A stretch of 26,130 nt of DNA from Chlamydiota bacterium (GCA_016196885.1 JACPWU010000062.1:1-26130), one strand, 5' to 3'; numbered from the stretch's first letter, positions 601 through 26,130 are shown. The notes: generated by a model from the sequence alone, not told the origin. Made by a program: numbers and translations.

Positions 601-3824
<3,224 letters not shown>

Positions 3825-3906
3825 AGGCCGTACTTCGTGCTTCGTGCTGCGTACTTCGTTGTTGACAAACAACGAAGCACGAAGTACGCAGCACGAAGCA
3901 CGGCCT
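3825..3906. terminator. 82-nt imperfect palindrome built from ACGAAGY heptads, filling the gap between convergent ahcY and lptG; probable bidirectional terminator/stabiliser
   Basis: Left arm AGGCCGT ACTTCGT GCTTCGT GCTGCGT ACTTCGT TGTT, loop GACA (3864-3867), right arm AACA ACGAAGC ACGAAGT ACGCAGC ACGAAGC ACGGCCT. It spans from 1 nt after the ahcY stop into the lptG stop codon. There is no U-tract. Confidence 0.55.
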
Positions 3907-4988
3907 TACTTCAACCTCATCATCAGAATCATCCCCAGCCCTCCAAAAATTCCATTCGCAAGCCAGCTTGCCAGAAGAGGCGGGAGATACCCTTGTTTTC
4001 CCAGGGCGCTCAAGGTAAATTGCAGTCCATAGTAGGTCAGGGTGAGGAGAATGGTTTTGCCCAGGACGGGAAGCGCTCCTCCTCGCGTGATGGTAAGTCC
4101 GATGGGGACCACGACGAGCACCAAGATAAAACAGATCCAGGGTGTGGCCAATTTTTCATAAAGTTCGACGCGTTGCGAGGCGGGAATTCTTCCCCCGTAT
4201 TTCTTTGAAAGGGAATTTTTCAATTCTGAATAATTCATTTGTTCGGATGCCTTTTCTTCTCGAATCAGGTCAAGCGGTGATTCATAAATTCGGGTCTTCC
4301 TTTTGTAAAAAACTTCGGGATCATGTGTGATGTCTCCCGTTTCACTGTACCTGACAATGGTTCCATTGAAGAACCACCATTCGTTGTCCAGCCAGCGCCC
4401 TGTCTGGGCGCGGATGAGTTTGTTCATCGTGCCGTCTGGGTTCAAATAATGAACCTGAACATCCTGTGCTATGTTGGTTTTGGGATCCAGTTTATGAATA
4501 AAAAGGGCGTAGTTCTCCAGCGCATTTCCATAGGTTAAATCTTCATACCTTTGAGAATTTTCGTCTGTTTCCTTCTCGGAAAAAATTTTCTTGAAAATTT
4601 CGCTTTGCAATCGCGTTTGAGGAATGACCTCTTCATTCAAATAAAAGAAAAGGGCACTGAGGACCCATCCCAATAAAAGGAATGGGACGGCAATTCTCTT
4701 AGAAGAAATCCCAGCGGCCCTCATGCCGATGATTTCATGATGTCTCGTAAAATTTCCCAAAAGATAAATCAACGCAAGCACGAGAGAAAAAGGACAGATT
4801 TCAATGTAAATGTTAGGAAGCATGAAAAGGTAATAGCGTAAAATGTCCAACCAGGGTACATGTGATTTTAAGAATTCATCCATGTGCTCAAAGAGGTCTG
4901 CGATCAGATAAAGAAGGAAAAGGGTTAGAATACAATAGAAGAAGGGCAGAATAAATTCTCTTAAAATGTAACGATCAATGATTTTCAT
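3906..4988 (-). CDS. lptG: LptF/LptG-family LPS export ABC permease (second gene of pair)
   Basis: 360 aa. The N-terminus MKIIDRYILREFILPFFYCILTLFLL is typical of the YjgP/YjgQ family. It has multiple TM helices with a large periplasmic loop in the middle. The F versus G assignment rests on gene order only. Confidence 0.75.
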   Translation of the reverse strand: MKIIDRYILREFILPFFYCILTLFLLYLIADLFEHMDEFLKSHVPWLDILRYYLFMLPNIYIEICPFSLVLALIYLLGNFTRHHEIIGMRAAGISSKRIAVPFLLLGWVLSALFFYLNEEVIPQTRLQSEIFKKIFSEKETDENSQRYEDLTYGNALENYALFIHKLDPKTNIAQDVQVHYLNPDGTMNKLIRAQTGRWLDNEWWFFNGTIVRYSETGDITHDPEVFYKRKTRIYESPLDLIREEKASEQMNYSELKNSLSKKYGGRIPASQRVELYEKLATPWICFILVLVVVPIGLTITRGGALPVLGKTILLTLTYYGLQFTLSALGKQGYLPPLLASWLANGIFGGLGMILMMRLK

Positions 4989-6301: not shown

Positions 6302-6439
6302 TTTGCTATGAAAGTGAAGCTCATTCTGTAGTCGCCCCATTTATGGGGCTGCCCGATGAATCGGGCGACTACAAAAAAAGCATGATGGGGAGAACTTTCA
6401 TCGCACACGATGATCTCGTAAAGATCATTGAAATTGATA
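6302..6439 (+). repeat. type-B composite repeat, copy 1 (45-nt REPIN-like core 6328-6372)
   Basis: Nearly identical over about 137 nt to 21270-21406. It lies in the divergent lptF/comF intergenic region. Confidence 0.85.
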
Positions 6440-7228: not shown

Positions 7229-7338
7229 ATCAGTCGTGAGTCGTGAGGGGTGAGTCGTGAGTAAAAAAATAATACCTTTAAAACTCACGACTCACGACCG
7301 ACGACTCACAACTGCTTTCAAACTCACGACTCACGACC
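7229..7338. repeat. heptad (GTCGTGA / ACTCACG) inverted-repeat structure with a third, competing arm
   Basis: Left arm is 4 units GTCGTGA GTCGTGA GGGGTGA GTCGTGA (7233-7260). An A/T loop follows. Right arm is ACTCACG ACTCACG ACCGACG ACTCACA (7283-7310). A second right-arm copy, ACTCACG ACTCACG ACC, lies at 7322-7338. Confidence 0.75.
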
Positions 7339-9683: not shown

Positions 9684-9755
9684 ACGTTCAAAAGTTCAAA
9701 GGTGACGCGAAGCGTCATCCTGAGTATCACGAAGGATCTTATCAATAAAGTTTTT

Positions 9756-9893
9756 GGCATATGCACTTGATTCCCCTTAGATAGCAAGCGCCATGGCAAG
9801 AAGTTGTAGTCGCCCCATTCATGGGGCTGTGCCCCTTGCATAGGTTTGCCCGATGAATCGGGCGACTACAAAGGGGAATCAAGTGCATATGCC
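9756..9893 (+). mobile_element. 138-bp MITE with perfect 23-bp TIRs and an 11-bp target-site duplication, carrying a REPIN-like core (9806-9869)
   Basis: The TIRs GGCATATGCACTTGATTCCCCTT (9756-9778) and AAGGGGAATCAAGTGCATATGCC (9871-9893) are exact reverse complements. The direct repeat ATAAAGTTTTT lies at 9745-9755 and 9895-9905. Confidence 0.8.
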
Positions 9894-9910
9894 TATAAAG
9901 TTTTTTACAT

Positions 9911-10666
9911 ATGCGTATTCCCATCATTGCTGGCAATTGGAAAATGAATAAAACGACTGCAGAGGCAGTTACCTTCGTTCAATCCCTGAAAAAAGAATTG
10001 GGTCAGCTAAGCGACCGCCTTTGCGTGATCTGTCCGCCTTTTACCGCTCTTCTTTCTGTCGCTCAAGAGCTAAAGGGAAGCGGGATCGAGTGGGGTGCCC
10101 AGAATCTTTTCTGGGAGACCGAGGGGGCTTTTACGGGCGAGATTTCATCCAGGATGTTGAAGGAGATAGGTGCTTCTTATTGTATTTTGGGGCACTGCGA
10201 ACGCAGGAAAATTTTGAAAGAAACAGATGAAATGGTTCATCGCAAAGTGAAGAAGGCCCTTGCAGAAGGACTTTCACCGATTGTTTGCGTCGGCGAGAGA
10301 TTGGAGGAAAGAGAAAAAGGAATCACGTTTGATGTCATTAAGTCTCAAGTCACACAAGACTTAGAAGGATTGAAAAAAGAGGAGGTTTTGCGCTGTGTTC
10401 TTGCTTATGAACCTGTCTGGGCCATTGGAACAGGTCGAAATGCCACCCCGCTTCAAGCTCAAGAGGTACATGCTTTTATTCGCAAACTTTTGGGGGAGCA
10501 ATTTGGGGAAGAGGCGGCTTCCAAGGTTCGCATTCAATACGGCGGCAGTGTGAAGCCGGACAACATAGATGAATTGATGGCCGAAGACGATGTGGACGGG
10601 GCTTTGGTGGGGGGTGCGAGTCTGGACATAAAATCTTTTGCAAGAATTGTAAATTTTAAGGTATAA
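9911..10666 (+). CDS. tpiA: triosephosphate isomerase
   Basis: MRIPIIAGNWKMN N-terminus, ILGHCERR, AYEPVWAIGTG and YGGSVKP motifs. Confidence 0.95.
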   Translation: MRIPIIAGNWKMNKTTAEAVTFVQSLKKELGQLSDRLCVICPPFTALLSVAQELKGSGIEWGAQNLFWETEGAFTGEISSRMLKEIGASYCILGHCERRKILKETDEMVHRKVKKALAEGLSPIVCVGERLEEREKGITFDVIKSQVTQDLEGLKKEEVLRCVLAYEPVWAIGTGRNATPLQAQEVHAFIRKLLGEQFGEEAASKVRIQYGGSVKPDNIDELMAEDDVDGALVGGASLDIKSFARIVNFKV

Positions 10667-12700: not shown

Positions 12701-12735
12701 ACAGAAGACAGAATTCAGGAGTCAGAATTCAGCAG
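12701..12735 (+). repeat. heptad array ACAGAAG ACAGAAT TCAGGAG TCAGAAT TCAGCAG
   Basis: Five tandem 7-mers that overlap the stop and last four codons of the HAD gene. A same-orientation sister array lies at 13381-13415. Confidence 0.7.
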
Positions 12736-13372
12736 CTTTAAGTAATTCCAGCGGCTTGTGTATCAATTTTTTTGCTCCACTTGCTATTAATTCCTCAGCA
12801 GTTCTAAATCCCCACAAGGCTCCCACAGGAAACATACCGGCTCGGGAAGCTGTCTCCATGTCAATTTTGGTGTCTCCGAGAAAAATAAAATTTTTTGCGT
12901 CCACTTTCATTTTTGAGGCGATTTGAAGAGCAGAAGAAGGATTGGGCTTTTTCGGCATTTCGTCATGGGCCCCTTGAATGACATCAAATTTCCATTTCCC
13001 TAAAAATTTTCGGACAATGAGTTTCGTGAAATCATCTGGCTTATTGGAGAGAATGGCCGTTTTGATTTTTTTTCTTTCCAATTCATCCAGCAATTCTGAA
13101 ATCCCTGGATAGGGATGCGTTTTCTCGGCCCATCGGTGATGGTATTCTTCCCTCATTTGTTTGACGGTTCTGGAAATCATATCAGATTTTCGGTGAATTT
13201 CGGGAAGGGCACTCCAGGCTAAATATTCCACACCTTCTCCCACAAAATCTTTGTAGCTTTCCGTTGGATGAAGGGGCAAGCCAAAAGATTTTAAAACCGT
13301 GTTCATCGAGTCTGCCAAATCGGCCAAGGTGTCGAGCAGTGTTCCGTCAAGATCGAAGAGAATGGCTTTCAT
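12722..13372 (-). CDS. HAD-superfamily hydrolase (phosphoglycolate phosphatase-like)
   Basis: MKAILFDLDGTLLDT (DxDxT motif I), ILSNK (motif II) and LGDTKIDMETA (motif IV-like). Confidence 0.85.
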   Translation of the reverse strand: MKAILFDLDGTLLDTLADLADSMNTVLKSFGLPLHPTESYKDFVGEGVEYLAWSALPEIHRKSDMISRTVKQMREEYHHRWAEKTHPYPGISELLDELERKKIKTAILSNKPDDFTKLIVRKFLGKWKFDVIQGAHDEMPKKPNPSSALQIASKMKVDAKNFIFLGDTKIDMETASRAGMFPVGALWGFRTAEELIASGAKKLIHKPLELLKAAEF

Positions 13373-13380
13373 ACTTAAAT

Positions 13381-13415
13381 ACAGAATACAGAAGACAGAA
13401 GTCAGAAGACAGAAA
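13381..13415 (+). repeat. heptad array ACAGAAT ACAGAAG ACAGAAG TCAGAAG ACAGAAA
   Basis: Five tandem 7-mers starting 9 nt upstream of the HAD start codon (minus strand), so they occupy the expected RBS region. Confidence 0.7.
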
Positions 13416-20279: not shown

Positions 20280-20313
20280 AAAAAGGGGTAGGGTGTTTTC
20301 TTCACTAGTAGAA

Positions 20314-20344
20314 AGGTCCTCAGGTGGGGGCCTTTTTGCTTTTT
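20314..20344 (+). terminator. intrinsic terminator candidate
   Basis: AGGTCCTC (20314-20321), loop AGGT, GGGGGCCT (20326-20333): 8 bp including two G-U pairs. Followed by TTTTTGCTTTTT. Confidence 0.55.
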
Positions 20345-20554
20345 AGTAGGCTGCTGAAAAAGGCCCATCTGACAATGCCTCCCACTTCGCTCCCTTGTGC
20401 GGCGTACCCTAGCCTGGATTTCTCATCACGAGCTCAAAATGCATACAGCTTGTCATCCCCGAGTGTTTTAATCGGGGATCCAAAAACACCTAAAACTCTG
20501 GATTCCCGCTTACCCCACAGGGGCTATTTCGTTGAAACCTGCGGGAATGTCTAT

Positions 20555-20683
20555 GGAAAAGGTGGTCTCCCCAAGTATTTAAACTTGATGAGCTCTGAAC
20601 ACGAAGTGTTCGGCTATTATGAAGGGGAGAAGAATGGTTGACCCAAACGTCATCCAACATAAGAAAAGGAGACCACCTTTTCC
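20555..20683. repeat. 129-nt element closed by a perfect 16-bp inverted repeat (MITE-like or structured RNA)
   Basis: GGAAAAGGTGGTCTCC (20555-20570) and GGAGACCACCTTTTCC (20668-20683). Internal hairpins are CAAGT/ACTTG (20572-20587) and CTGAACAC-GAA-GTGTTCGG (20595-20613). Confidence 0.6.
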
Positions 20684-20706
20684 AATTTACCGACAGGTGA
20701 TGATGA

Positions 20707-20851
20707 GAAACGGCCATGACTTTCAGTCACAAGGGGGGATGAAAATCACCCTTGTAGTCGCCCCATTTATGGGGCTGCCCGATGAATCGGGCGACTACAA
20801 TTCATCATAACTTATTGTATAAGAATGAGTAAAGACTATTTTCAGATGAAA
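20707..20851 (+). repeat. type-A composite repeat, copy 2 (45-nt core 20754-20798)
   Basis: Same shells as 372-548. The left-shell hairpin is replaced by a different hairpin, TGACT-TTC-AGTCA (20717-20729). Confidence 0.85.
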
Positions 20852-21013: not shown

Positions 21014-21232
21014 ATGAAAATTTTTGTGAAGGTGAAGCTTCGTGCCAAAGAATGCCGGGTAAAAAAAATAGATGAAAATCATTTTGAGATAGCTGTGAAA
21101 GAGCCTCCGATTGAAGGTAGGGCGAACGTGGCCGTTACAAAGGCGTTGGCGGAATTTTTTGGGAGAGCTCCCTCCAGAGTGAAAATTCTCTCAGGCTTTT
21201 CATCCAGGCAAAAAATTTTTGAAATAGGGTAA
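21014..21232 (+). CDS. DUF167 (YggU-like) family protein
   Basis: 72 aa. KVKLRAKECRV...IAVKEPPIEGRANVAVTKALAEFFG...VKILSGFSSRQKIFEI matches the DUF167 pattern (ApPveGkAN ... G.tSR.K). Confidence 0.8.
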   Translation: MKIFVKVKLRAKECRVKKIDENHFEIAVKEPPIEGRANVAVTKALAEFFGRAPSRVKILSGFSSRQKIFEIG

Positions 21233-21269: not shown

Positions 21270-21406
21270 TTTGCTATGAAAGTGAAGCTCACTCTGTAGT
21301 CGCCCCATTTATGGGGCTGCCCGATGAATCGGGCGACTACAAAAAAAGCATGATGGGGAGAACTTTCATCGCACACGATGATCTCGAAAGATCATTGAAA
21401 TTAATA
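21270..21406 (+). repeat. type-B composite repeat, copy 2 (45-nt core 21296-21340)
   Basis: Differs from 6302-6439 at three positions that I can see. Its right end overlaps the moeB-like stop codon (21401-21403). Confidence 0.85.
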
Positions 21407-22549
21407 CGTCGCCATGTTGGGATCAATATCAGTGGCCCAGGCATGAATCCCGCCTTTGAGACTTTTCACCTTCTTAAAGCCCATTTCCTTGAGGAATTTC
21501 GCCGCGTTCAGGCTTCTCACCCCGTGATGGCAATGGGTGACGATCTCATCGGCCGTGTCTAGTTCATTCACGCGCTGAGGTAAATCAGCCAAGGGAATCA
21601 AAACGGATTCTTCCAGATGGCAGATGTCATATTCGTGAGGCTCACGGACATCTACGACAACCACCTTTTTCTTGCTGTCGAGCGTTTTCTTGAGTTCCCG
21701 AGCTGTGATTTCTAGGTCAGAGGCCTCTTTCTGGGTTTCTTCTTGGCCGCGGCCGATTCCACAAAATTCCTCGTAATCAATGAGGCTTGTGAGGGTTGGA
21801 TGATCTGAGCAGATGGGGCAATTCGGGTCTTTCCGGAGCTTCAGCTCCCGAATCTTCATTTCAAGGGCGCTGATAATCAGAAGACGGCCGATCAAGGGTT
21901 CCCCTTGGCCCAAAATAAGTTTAATTGTCTCCGTCGCTTGAATGCAGCCGACAAGGCCTGGAAGAATGCCAAGGACTCCGCCTTCGGCGCAACTGGGCAC
22001 CATCCCGGGAGGAGGAGGCTCTGGATAAAGGCAACGGTAGCAGGGGCCCCGTTCGGCGGCAAAGACAGAGGACTGGCCTTCAAAGCGGAAAATGCTGCCA
22101 TAGACATTGGGCTTTTTCAAGAGGACGCAGGCATCGTTGACCAAATAGCGCGTGGCAAAATTGTCTGTGCCGTCCACCACAATGTCGTAGGGTTCGATCC
22201 ATTGGATGGCGTTGTCAGAAGAAAGTCGCTCTTTATAAATTTCTACATCAATGCTGGAGTTGAGCGAGAGAAGTCTCTCTTTGGCCGATTCAGCCTTAGA
22301 CTCTCCGATCTTGGCTTCACTGTGAATGATTTGGCGCTGGAGATTTGAAAAATCCACCACGTCAAAATCCACAATACCCAAATGGCCCACGCCGGCGGCC
22401 GCCAGATAAAGGGCCAGCGGAGAGCCAAGGCCTCCAGCTCCGATGCAAAGGACCCTTGCGTTACAAAGCTTCTCTTGACCCTCAATGCCCACTTCGGGCA
22501 TGATCAAATGACGGCTGTATCTTGCGATCTGATCTTTGCTTAATGGCAT
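21401..22549 (-). CDS. moeB: MoeB/ThiF-family adenylyltransferase with C-terminal rhodanese domain (MoeZ/MoeBR type)
   Basis: YSRHLIMPEVGIEGQEKL, the nucleotide loop CIGAGGLGSPLALYLAAAGVG, zinc-binding CYRC...CPIC pairs, and a rhodanese active-site loop HCHHGVRS. Confidence 0.9.
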   Translation of the reverse strand: MPLSKDQIARYSRHLIMPEVGIEGQEKLCNARVLCIGAGGLGSPLALYLAAAGVGHLGIVDFDVVDFSNLQRQIIHSEAKIGESKAESAKERLLSLNSSIDVEIYKERLSSDNAIQWIEPYDIVVDGTDNFATRYLVNDACVLLKKPNVYGSIFRFEGQSSVFAAERGPCYRCLYPEPPPPGMVPSCAEGGVLGILPGLVGCIQATETIKLILGQGEPLIGRLLIISALEMKIRELKLRKDPNCPICSDHPTLTSLIDYEEFCGIGRGQEETQKEASDLEITARELKKTLDSKKKVVVVDVREPHEYDICHLEESVLIPLADLPQRVNELDTADEIVTHCHHGVRSLNAAKFLKEMGFKKVKSLKGGIHAWATDIDPNMATY

Positions 22550-25905: not shown

Positions 25906-26016
25906 AAAGAATAATGAAATAACTCCCCCAACCCCAGCAAGGGAGGCTGCACTGCTAGTCTCAGTACAAAGCCGACTGCGGTAGTAGATGTTTTTTTACG
26001 TCTGTCCTCTTGTTAT

Positions 26017-26130
26017 GAAACATTCATGCCGACTGAGGTCGGCACAAAGGGGGATGAAAATCACCCTTGTAGTCGCCCCATTTATGGGGCCGTTGCATGG
26101 ACTGCCCGATGAATCGGGCGACTACAAGTC
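26017..26130 (+). repeat. type-A composite repeat, copy 3 (core 26069-26125, 13-nt spacer), truncated by the window end
   Basis: The left shell is identical to copy 1 from GAAACATTCATGCCGACTGAGGTCGGCAC through GTAGTC. Confidence 0.85.

Follow-up and report, generated by a model that had tools for sequence, protein, structure and literature searches.

Six paired GTAG-footed hairpin repeats in a Chlamydiota-labelled metagenomic contig: probable non-autonomous elements served by a transposase encoded elsewhere

Introduction

The repetitive extragenic palindromic (REP) sequences of Escherichia coli, and the bacterial interspersed mosaic elements (BIMEs) built from them, have a 5' GTAG foot beside an imperfect palindrome and occur as inverted pairs. 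The gene of their REP-associated tyrosine transposase (RAYT), TnpA_REP (RayT/YafM; 4ER8), lies within its own REP cluster, an arrangement called a REPtron, and encodes a Y1/HUH enzyme with the motif Y-x3-N-P. On single-stranded DNA (ssDNA) this enzyme binds the hairpin and, in a base-specific manner, GTAG; the CT dinucleotides at which it cleaves may flank the hairpin on either side and may be remote from it, and it can rejoin strands (PMC3479197). In Pseudomonas fluorescens SBW25, two inverted REPs and a short spacer form a replicating unit, the REP doublet forming hairpins (REPIN), which is non-autonomous and is served by a RAYT whose flanks carry these repeats as well (Bertels and Rainey 2011; PMC3116915). 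Here we describe six doublets with these features in a 26,130-bp contig (JACPWU010000062.1) of a groundwater metagenome-assembled genome (MAG; GCA_016196885.1); the whole contig is called the window below. We consider it very probable that the six repeats are REPINs, non-autonomous and served by a RAYT-type enzyme encoded elsewhere in the genome.

Three further groups serve for comparison. Subclass 2.4 of TnpA_REP (RAYT group 4; Quentin et al. 2018, PMC6006769), found in various phyla, has the motifs NH[IFV]H, WQ and YIxNNP, double-foot REPs (5' GTAG, 3' CTAC) and in-frame REPs in the tnpA_REP gene. The GTAG REP superfamily (Di Nocera et al. 2013, PMC3733652), with Opitutus terrae GTAG-17 and Anabaena variabilis GTAG-15 among its families, consists predominantly of head-to-head (HH) dimers, including heterodimers with different stems; spacers are as short as 1-2 bp or belong to conserved families, and some dimers lie within long palindromes, of which no empty examples are found. 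The insertion sequences (IS) of the IS200/IS605 type and their miniature derivatives belong to the same HUH/Y1 fold family, and have in common with the present system the recognition of ssDNA hairpins and a guide tetranucleotide 5' of the hairpin. The kind of element reported here, REP/REPIN with RAYT, is well known.

Results

The NCBI label of the source MAG is Chlamydiae/Chlamydiota (proteins MBI1884369.1 and MBI3267321.1). Since the nearest named relatives of its phosphoglycerate kinase (PGK) beyond about 75% identity are candidate lineages of the Planctomycetes-Verrucomicrobia-Chlamydiae (PVC) group, we treat the phylum as the depositor's label. The sequence of the window is also present in shorter assemblies from runs SRR12113387 and SRR12113416.

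An exact 45-mer, GTAGTCGCCCCATTTATGGGGCTGCCCGATGAATCGGGCGACTAC, occurs three times with zero mismatch on the + strand, at 6328-6372, 20754-20798 and 21296-21340, and none is expected by chance (100 dinucleotide-preserving shuffles). A gapped pattern added three + strand doublets at 424-495, 9806-9869 and 26069-26125, again with none expected in shuffles. An earlier note, made from the sequence of this DNA alone, had listed the same six positions with long spacers of 28, 20 and 13 nt, and exact and gapped pattern searches recovered all of them. The same note rightly described TTGCAT as common to two of the long spacers, a single stem mismatch in the copy at 424, and loops that drift between copies. 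Allowing up to 2-3 mismatches, the window holds exactly 12 half-units, all paired, with zero singletons. Its reading of the units as GTAG-tagged REPs in inverted pairs holds for 12 out of 12.

Every pair consists of a C-type unit (GCCCC..GGGGC) on the + strand and a G-type unit (GCCCGAT..ATCGGGC) on the - strand, and all 12 units start with GTAGTC. The halves face each other with GTAG outermost, which makes each doublet an HH heterodimer. A half is 22 nt long and reads (Y)T-GTAGTY followed by a 16-nt hairpin, G-Y-Y-Y-N-A-T / T-Y / A-T-N-R-R-R-C; the doublet core has palindromic ends, TTGTAGTC..GACTACAA, without target duplication. The two partners are one compensated stem pair apart (C:G versus G:C), so that each unit can fold alone, or both jointly into a Y-shaped or long hairpin on ssDNA. 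Compared with the E. coli REP, the unit is shorter, with a near-perfect 16-nt hairpin, a loop of 2-4 nt and no bulge. Compared with SBW25, the partners are always heterodimers with a compensated stem difference, and the spacers are often 1-3 nt long.

The three 45-mer copies have a spacer of 1 nt. In the first, at 6328-6372, the C-type unit occupies 6328-6349 (+) and the G-type unit 6351-6372 (-). The copy at 20754-20798 is the one on which the earlier note centred, and that at 21296-21340 is placed between two genes that converge on it, DUF167 (21014-21232, +) and moeB/thiF-like (21401-22549, -). The doublet at 424-495 has a 28-nt spacer; its left unit (424-445, +) is GTAGTCGCCCCCTTTATGGGGC, which carries the stem mismatch (GCCCCC..), and its right unit (474-495, -) reads GTAGTCGCCCGATTTATCGGGC. 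The doublet at 9806-9869, with the 20-nt spacer TGTGCCCCTTGCATAGGTTT, lies inside the 227-nt region between pgk and tpiA, and its spacer is resembled by that of a doublet at 1599-1662 in locus L063, which comes from a sister MAG. The last doublet, at 26069-26125, has a 13-nt spacer and ends 5 nt before the end of the contig.

We then examined where else the unit occurs. A scan of 185,579 species genomes with the pattern GTAGTCGCCCSATNNATSGGGC gave at least 51 loci. Among the loci listed are MAGs labelled Stahlbacteria, WOR-3, Zixibacteria, Poribacteria (closed chromosomes), Planctomycetota, Nitrospinota, Nitrospirae, Elusimicrobiota, Doudnabacteria and others, and by label the unit is found in MAGs of more than 10 phyla. 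The hosts labelled Chlamydiota, WOR-3, Stahlbacteria, Zixibacteria and candidate phyla radiation (CPR) lie outside the coverage of the GTAG superfamily survey (PMC3733652). At most loci a second hairpin and (A/C)AACTAC come 1-15 nt after the matched unit, the arrangement of an HH doublet, and the partner stems differ by compensatory changes, as in GTCTGATAAATCAGAC and GTCCAATGAATTGGAC. Loci L003-L053 contain 24 HH pairs, all 24 of them heterodimers, with spacers mostly of 1-3 nt. No match to the unit was found in a scan of viral contigs, and a literature search on the unit sequence, GTAGTYGCCCNATTYATNGGGC, returned one irrelevant hit and not the unit itself.

The stems covary. When units were gathered by a pattern that left five outer stem positions free, 53 distinct units had Watson-Crick pairs at 226 of the 265 free positions, compared with 150 +/- 6 (maximum 172) after shuffling of the arms, and at least 15 stem variants were separated by compensatory changes. 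All 186 units, drawn from about 65 loci, keep the GTAG foot unchanged; in 86% of them it is preceded by T (position -1), and, seen from the GTAG end, 175 of 180 loop centres are TT or TC. Conservation thus falls on a directional, hairpin-forming site.

Two unusual arrangements were seen among these loci. At L037:5800-6000 the REPs form a head-to-tail tandem array with a period of 34 and an identical 12-nt spacer (GTAGTCGCCCAATTCATCGGGCAGGTTTCTCTCT), which is not CRISPR-like. This is the sole tandem array, and with no arrays of variable spacers the CRISPR reading was rejected, as was that of integron attC sites, for which there is no matching consensus. In doublets of the Stahlbacteria type, an additional hairpin, about 26 nt long (CCCCGCTCCTTTATAAGGGGCGTGGG and variants), is inserted precisely into the loop of the second hairpin of the pair (L026:1072-1150 and 4714-4790; L007, - strand, near 3769-3790; L011; L033), with the 4-nt loop (TAAA or TGAA) duplicated. 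It resembles another miniature element, one with hairpin loops as its target.

The window encodes no Y1 or other transposase, as judged by Pfam scans and by phmmer searches of two RAYTs against its open reading frames (ORFs) of at least 70 aa, which agrees with the earlier note. Unbiased clustering of the ORFs round the 51 genome loci gave zero protein families recurring beside the repeats; RAYT genes are rare relative to REP copies. In metagenome contigs, a search for the unit with the reverse-complemented coding motif Y[IV]xxNP 141-201 nt after it gave three loci, and all three encode one homologous small protein with REP units on both sides. The RAYT gene of L056, for example, has about ten units upstream and six downstream. 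Seven more members (P0007, P0113, P0132, P0128, P0131, P0133 and P0129) were reached by protein homology alone, and units lay beside or inside the gene in all seven. The association between the RAYT family and the REPs thus holds at 10 of the 10 independent loci examined, and L067, a related 21-kb locus without RAYT, has zero units. The earlier note had suggested a search for a RAYT-type Y1 gene flanked by these units, and such genes were found in P0129 (L071) and P0132 (L063).

The only RAYT within the 51 genome loci, at L007 (1503-2048), was rejected as the cognate enzyme, being flanked by a different REP, GGAGTAGGGCGTTTACGCCC. This region (L007:1470-2110, in a Stahlbacteria MAG) is a second REP/RAYT system, in which a RAYT of 182 aa (REP_Tyr_transpos, 94 bits) is accompanied by GGAGTAGGGCGTTTACGCCC units.

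The proteins of the family are about 138-166 aa long and score 31-51 bits against Pfam PF01797 (cut-off 23), an annotation precomputed on nearly all matches. Their best NCBIfam model is REP_Tyr_transpos, against which five members, P0129 and P0132 among them, score 68-75 bits, and the best PDB match of P0132 is 4ER8, the E. coli TnpA_REP itself (E = 1.2e-6). H64, H66, W98, Y119, N123 and P124 are invariant in a 14-sequence alignment that includes E. coli RayT; HUH is present in 198 of 201 family members and Y..NP in 189, and the tyrosine motif is Y-I-x-N-N-P. The family comprises 739 clusters at E <= 1e-10. The best 120 of the 739 are 60-100% identical to the WOR-3 query and are labelled WOR-3, Chloroflexota and Dehalococcoidia, with the JGI name RayT frequent among them; a second search, with the L057 member as query, added labels of Zixibacteria, several CPR groups, Proteobacteria and Chlamydiae. 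Across phyla the RAYTs are 46-80% identical. Unit and enzyme are therefore found in MAGs of many phyla, and not in one genus as in the SBW25 study.

Relative to E. coli RayT, the enzyme is shorter (median 138 aa versus 165), lacks the C-terminal tail and is about 23% identical. Its motifs (xH[IVL]H, WQ, YIxNNP), the double-foot-like ends of the 45-mers and the in-frame REPs point to subclass 2.4 as the closest described group, a membership judged by motifs only: the residue preceding HUH is S, T, N or D here and the subclass motif is NH[IFV]H. The proteins are also shorter than those of subclass 2.4 (138 aa versus a median of 194), and whereas the REP insertion of that subclass lies between HUH and Y, the internal REP here is upstream of HUH and causes no lengthening.

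Many of the RAYT genes carry, about 40 codons from the start, an in-frame and perfect REP unit that encodes VVAQFIG, VVARFIG or VVAQFIE; VVA[QR]FI is present in 62 of 201 family members, about a third. A second, inverted unit stands at the 3' end of the ORF, so that the pair brackets the catalytic core; the two are identical within one gene and different between genes. Such pairs lie at L064:658-679 and 960-981, L065:1284-1305 and 1582-1603, L066:867-888 and 1165-1186, and L063:10115-10136 and 10414-10435, and further in-gene units at L056:3391-3412, L058:4118-4139 and L057:1525-1546. C-terminal tails such as LPDKSGDY, PMNRATT and PNKLGNY are translated REP units, and at two loci the TAG stop codon of the RAYT gene coincides with the last three bases of the GTAG foot of the unit that follows (L056:3699-3702; L058:4426-4429).

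Two members of the family bear directly on the window. P0129 is encoded at 2065-2565 of L071, a 4,259-bp contig (JACPXZ010000027.1, GCA_016196225.1), and is flanked by GTAGTCGCCCCATTTATGGGGC-12 nt-GCCCGATGAATCGGGCGACTAC, exactly the two units of the window, with the same doublet, inverted, downstream. Run SRR12113416, in which the sequence of the window is also found, yielded a second assembly of this contig's sequence. The G+C contents are 48.3% for the P0129 contig and 46.5% for the window, and, of about 65 loci, the window shows the highest correlation with the tetranucleotide signature of L071 after removal of RAYT and REPs (r = 0.87), and a CPR locus the lowest. By these measures, the P0129 contig probably derives from the window's organism or from a close relative and was mis-binned. 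P0132 (L063), 78% identical to P0129 and annotated as a transposase, is encoded between trpB and trpA in the sister Chlamydiae MAG GCA_016178055.1; it has GTAGTCGCCCCATTTATGGGGC-26 nt-GCCCGATAAATCGGGCGGCTAC on either side, in which the C-type unit is the same as in the window. P0128, P0131 and P0133 were rejected as members from the window's sample, as they come from other sequencing runs.

The positions of the doublets differ between related genomes. L069, another contig of the sister MAG GCA_016178055.1, is syntenic with the window over 10 orthologues (57-89% amino-acid identity), and has a doublet at none of the three orthologous sites (upstream of the metK fusion, lptF-comF and pgk-tpiA). 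The region between pgk and tpiA is 227 nt long in the window and 16 nt in the sister, and in a third relative the two genes overlap. Conversely, L069 has a doublet between the genes gap and pgk, which overlap in the window. The elements were therefore gained or lost since the species diverged, and the three identical cores, together with flanks that are 92-98% identical (below), point to recent spread within the genome.

The orientation of the doublets was also compared. The + strand of the window has a GC skew of +0.13 and carries 76% of the residues of long ORFs, and is thus plausibly the leading strand; on it, the C-type unit comes first in all six doublets. Relative to the window, L063 has four doublets in the same orientation, L069 one in the opposite orientation and L071 one each way, which gives a pooled 11 of 13 (two-sided binomial about 0.02) with several copies non-independent, as tandem neighbours of RAYT. 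When doublets from other phyla are scored for orientation against the local GC skew, the ratio is 22:23, no bias. The common direction reported in the earlier note is therefore real within the window, and the strand bias drawn from it is weaker than claimed and suggestive only.

The doublets are embedded in longer repeats. Three shells (A, B and C), genuine repeat families, reach 25-100 nt past the core, all on the + strand. In copy 1 of shell A (369-548) the doublet is accompanied by two hairpins, GCCGACTGAGGTCGGC upstream and the REP-like GGGGGATGAAAATCACCC, and by a conserved right arm whose last bases are ...GAGTAAAGACTATTTTCAGATGAAA. Copy 2 (20699-20851) has a right arm 92% identical to that of copy 1 and its first left-arm hairpin swapped for another, and copy 3 (26014-26130), truncated where the contig stops, matches copy 1 with 96% identity across the left arm and first unit. 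The two copies of shell B (6302-6439 and 21270-21406) are 98% identical over 120 nt, and the right arm of the former is 93% identical over 54 nt to L063 1538-1590. BLAST of the sister MAG and other loci did not find shells A and C, the right arm of shell B being the only match. Shell C (9745-9914) has perfect 23-bp inverted repeats GGCATATGCACTTGATTCCCCTT round the doublet, at 9756-9778 and 9871-9893, is bracketed by 11-20-nt direct repeats ATAAAGTTTTT..CATATGC at 9745-9764 and 9895-9914, and folds as ssDNA with -48 kcal/mol. The unit duplicated in the window is hence a composite of 140-180 nt, shell plus doublet, larger than the core. The earlier note was right that three conserved shells exist; its view that they depart from the usual REP picture did not stand, for such nesting is unusual but has published precedent (PMC3733652).

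These shells raise the possibility that they are themselves the mobile entities, similar to miniature inverted-repeat transposable elements (MITEs) and moved by another transposase, for instance a DDE enzyme acting on terminal inverted repeats, with the doublet as a passenger or inserted in the palindromic centre. The identity of 92-98% well past the core agrees with this, and in shell C the 23-bp repeats are terminal and the direct repeats resemble a target duplication. A shell-C-like carrier with a doublet is present in another MAG (L006), and the right arm of shell B is kept in the sister MAG L063, where it abuts the C-type and not the G-type unit, so that the doublet is flipped relative to the shell. 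However, no shell without a doublet was seen in the window or in any fetched locus, terminal inverted repeats and flanking duplications were not found for shells A and B, and no DDE transposase lies in the window or adjoins any copy. In other genomes and round RAYT genes the doublet spreads without these shells. The same nesting is, moreover, described for RAYT-associated GTAG REPs (PMC3733652). We regard this explanation as improbable.

A second explanation is that the doublets are not mobile but are host regulatory or structural elements under selection, such as transcript-end or mRNA-stabilising hairpins, protein-binding sites or a structured small RNA. Their folds are indeed strong: as ssDNA, either strand of the 45-mer folds with about -18 kcal/mol (z about -6 to -7.5), the copy at 20754 forming an 8-bp closing stem and two 6-bp hairpins (-17.9 kcal/mol, z = -7.5), and the long-spacer doublets favour a single long imperfect hairpin. 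As the earlier note had observed, all six copies are intergenic, and E. coli REPs affect mRNA stability, termination, and binding of integration host factor (IHF) and gyrase (PMC3479197). Against this, Rfam 15 gave zero covariance-model matches overlapping any copy at E <= 1, a check that the earlier note had proposed, and a tRNA scan found nothing at the copies. A terminator and promoter scan round 20754 and 21296 left the doublets unflagged, and the hairpins lack a trailing T-tract. The six doublets, within 26 kb, are flanked by Pfam-identified genes that include the metK fusion, ahcY, lptG/lptF, comF-like, gap, pgk, tpiA, secG, lpdA, lipA, an aspartase/fumarase-type lyase, DUF167 and moeB-like genes; they stand in a divergent promoter region, within an operon and between convergent genes, yet keep one fixed DNA orientation. 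Their sites are unconserved between syntenic sister genomes, and the units cluster round and inside a transposase gene. We regard a primarily host-serving role as very improbable.

That the repeats are miniature elements derived from IS200/IS605, like palindrome-associated transposable elements (PATEs), and moved by a classical TnpA_IS200 can in practice be set aside: the associated protein does match PF01797 (Transposase IS200 like) and, weakly, the IS200 NCBIfam model (22-40 bits), but its REP_Tyr_transpos score is about twice as high, its Y-I-x-N-N-P is typical of class 2 (RAYT) and not the Y-x3-Q of IS200 (PMC6006769), no tnpB was found beside any RAYT member in any neighbourhood examined, the repeats are inverted GTAG-footed hairpins unlike the same-orientation subterminal hairpins of IS ends, and no multi-copy full-length element was seen.

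Several other features of the window were recorded. The ORF at 601-2550 (also L069:1322-3271; 88% identity in the sister genome) encodes 649 aa and joins an N-terminal nucleotidyl-transferase (PF00483) to a complete S-adenosylmethionine synthetase. The region 20280-20750, some 470 nt of sequence lying upstream of the copy at 20754, has 20324-20641 as its only ORF, without Pfam match, and several GC-rich hairpins, e.g. CCCCGAGTGTTTTAATCGGGG and CCCGC..GCGGG; it may hold other repeat elements. Tandem repeats of 14 nt (ACAGAAGACAGAAT/GTCAGAA-like) stand at both ends of the HAD-hydrolase gene (12722-13372, -), at 12701-12741 and 13374-13414. A strong hairpin at 3836-3902 separates ahcY from lptG, which converge on it, and probably serves as a terminator in both directions; the short-read contig L002 ends there, and an Rfam microRNA match to it was sub-threshold and rejected as spurious. 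Upstream of gap, at 7276-7338, the direct repeat CTTTMAAACTCACGACTCACGACC occurs twice, 39 nt apart.

Discussion

Our results make it very likely that the six doublets are REPINs. By analogy with E. coli TnpA_REP, the enzyme, a class-2 Y1/HUH protein of the RAYT/TnpA_REP type whose gene would lie inside a cluster of the same units as in a REPtron, may recognise the 5' GTAG and the hairpin on ssDNA. It would then cut and rejoin at a nearby dinucleotide, so that units are copied or moved, and the conserved YT preceding GTAG is a candidate cleavage context. Cleavage away from the hairpin would explain why the duplicated unit is the 140-180-nt composite; alternatively, REP dimers may be nested in longer palindromic carriers. 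Secondary effects on the host, through RNA stability or protein binding, are possible.

Some points weigh against this interpretation. We know of no system in which mobilisation of REPINs by a RAYT has been demonstrated directly in vivo. What is duplicated in the window is the composite and not a bare doublet, so a simple model in which RAYTs move REPINs is insufficient alone. The REP_Tyr_transpos scores of 68-75 bits fall below the curated 80-bit cut-off of NF047646, the E. coli RayT equivalog, which makes the proteins RAYTs in the broad class-2 sense and not equivalogs of the E. coli enzyme. NCBI bins the P0129 contig in a Peregrinibacteria MAG, probably wrongly, since G+C, tetranucleotide signature and REP units match the window; we infer its place on the window's chromosome from these and from the shared sample. 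Finally, the copies counted for the window's organism are those of the 26-kb contig and the 4.3-kb contig.

A further question is how the family is inherited. It may be a horizontally spreading, still autonomous REPtron, and not a vertically inherited, domesticated single-copy system. Near-identical units and RAYTs of 46-80% identity in MAGs of more than 10 phyla would fit this, as would the non-syntenic RAYT sites in the sisters (trpB-trpA versus between two histidine-kinase genes) and the in-frame REP (VVAQFIG) with an inverted 3'-end REP in about a third of members. We consider this rather unlikely, with a small but real chance of being correct. If true, part of the RAYT gene would be a REPIN-like substrate of its own product, allowing self-regulation or self-mobilisation.

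In summary, six unexplained GC-rich repeats in an AT-leaning, Chlamydiota-labelled MAG now have a concrete proposed mechanism and a probable enzyme. On the practical side, the repeats break short-read assemblies and seem to have misdirected the binning of the transposase contig. Our data extend REP/RAYT systems to uncultured lineages, in MAGs labelled Chlamydiota, WOR-3, Stahlbacteria, Zixibacteria, Poribacteria and CPR. A single DNA-recognition specificity kept across these lineages offers a test set for vertical versus horizontal inheritance of RAYTs, and for how the recognition of GTAG plus hairpin is encoded.

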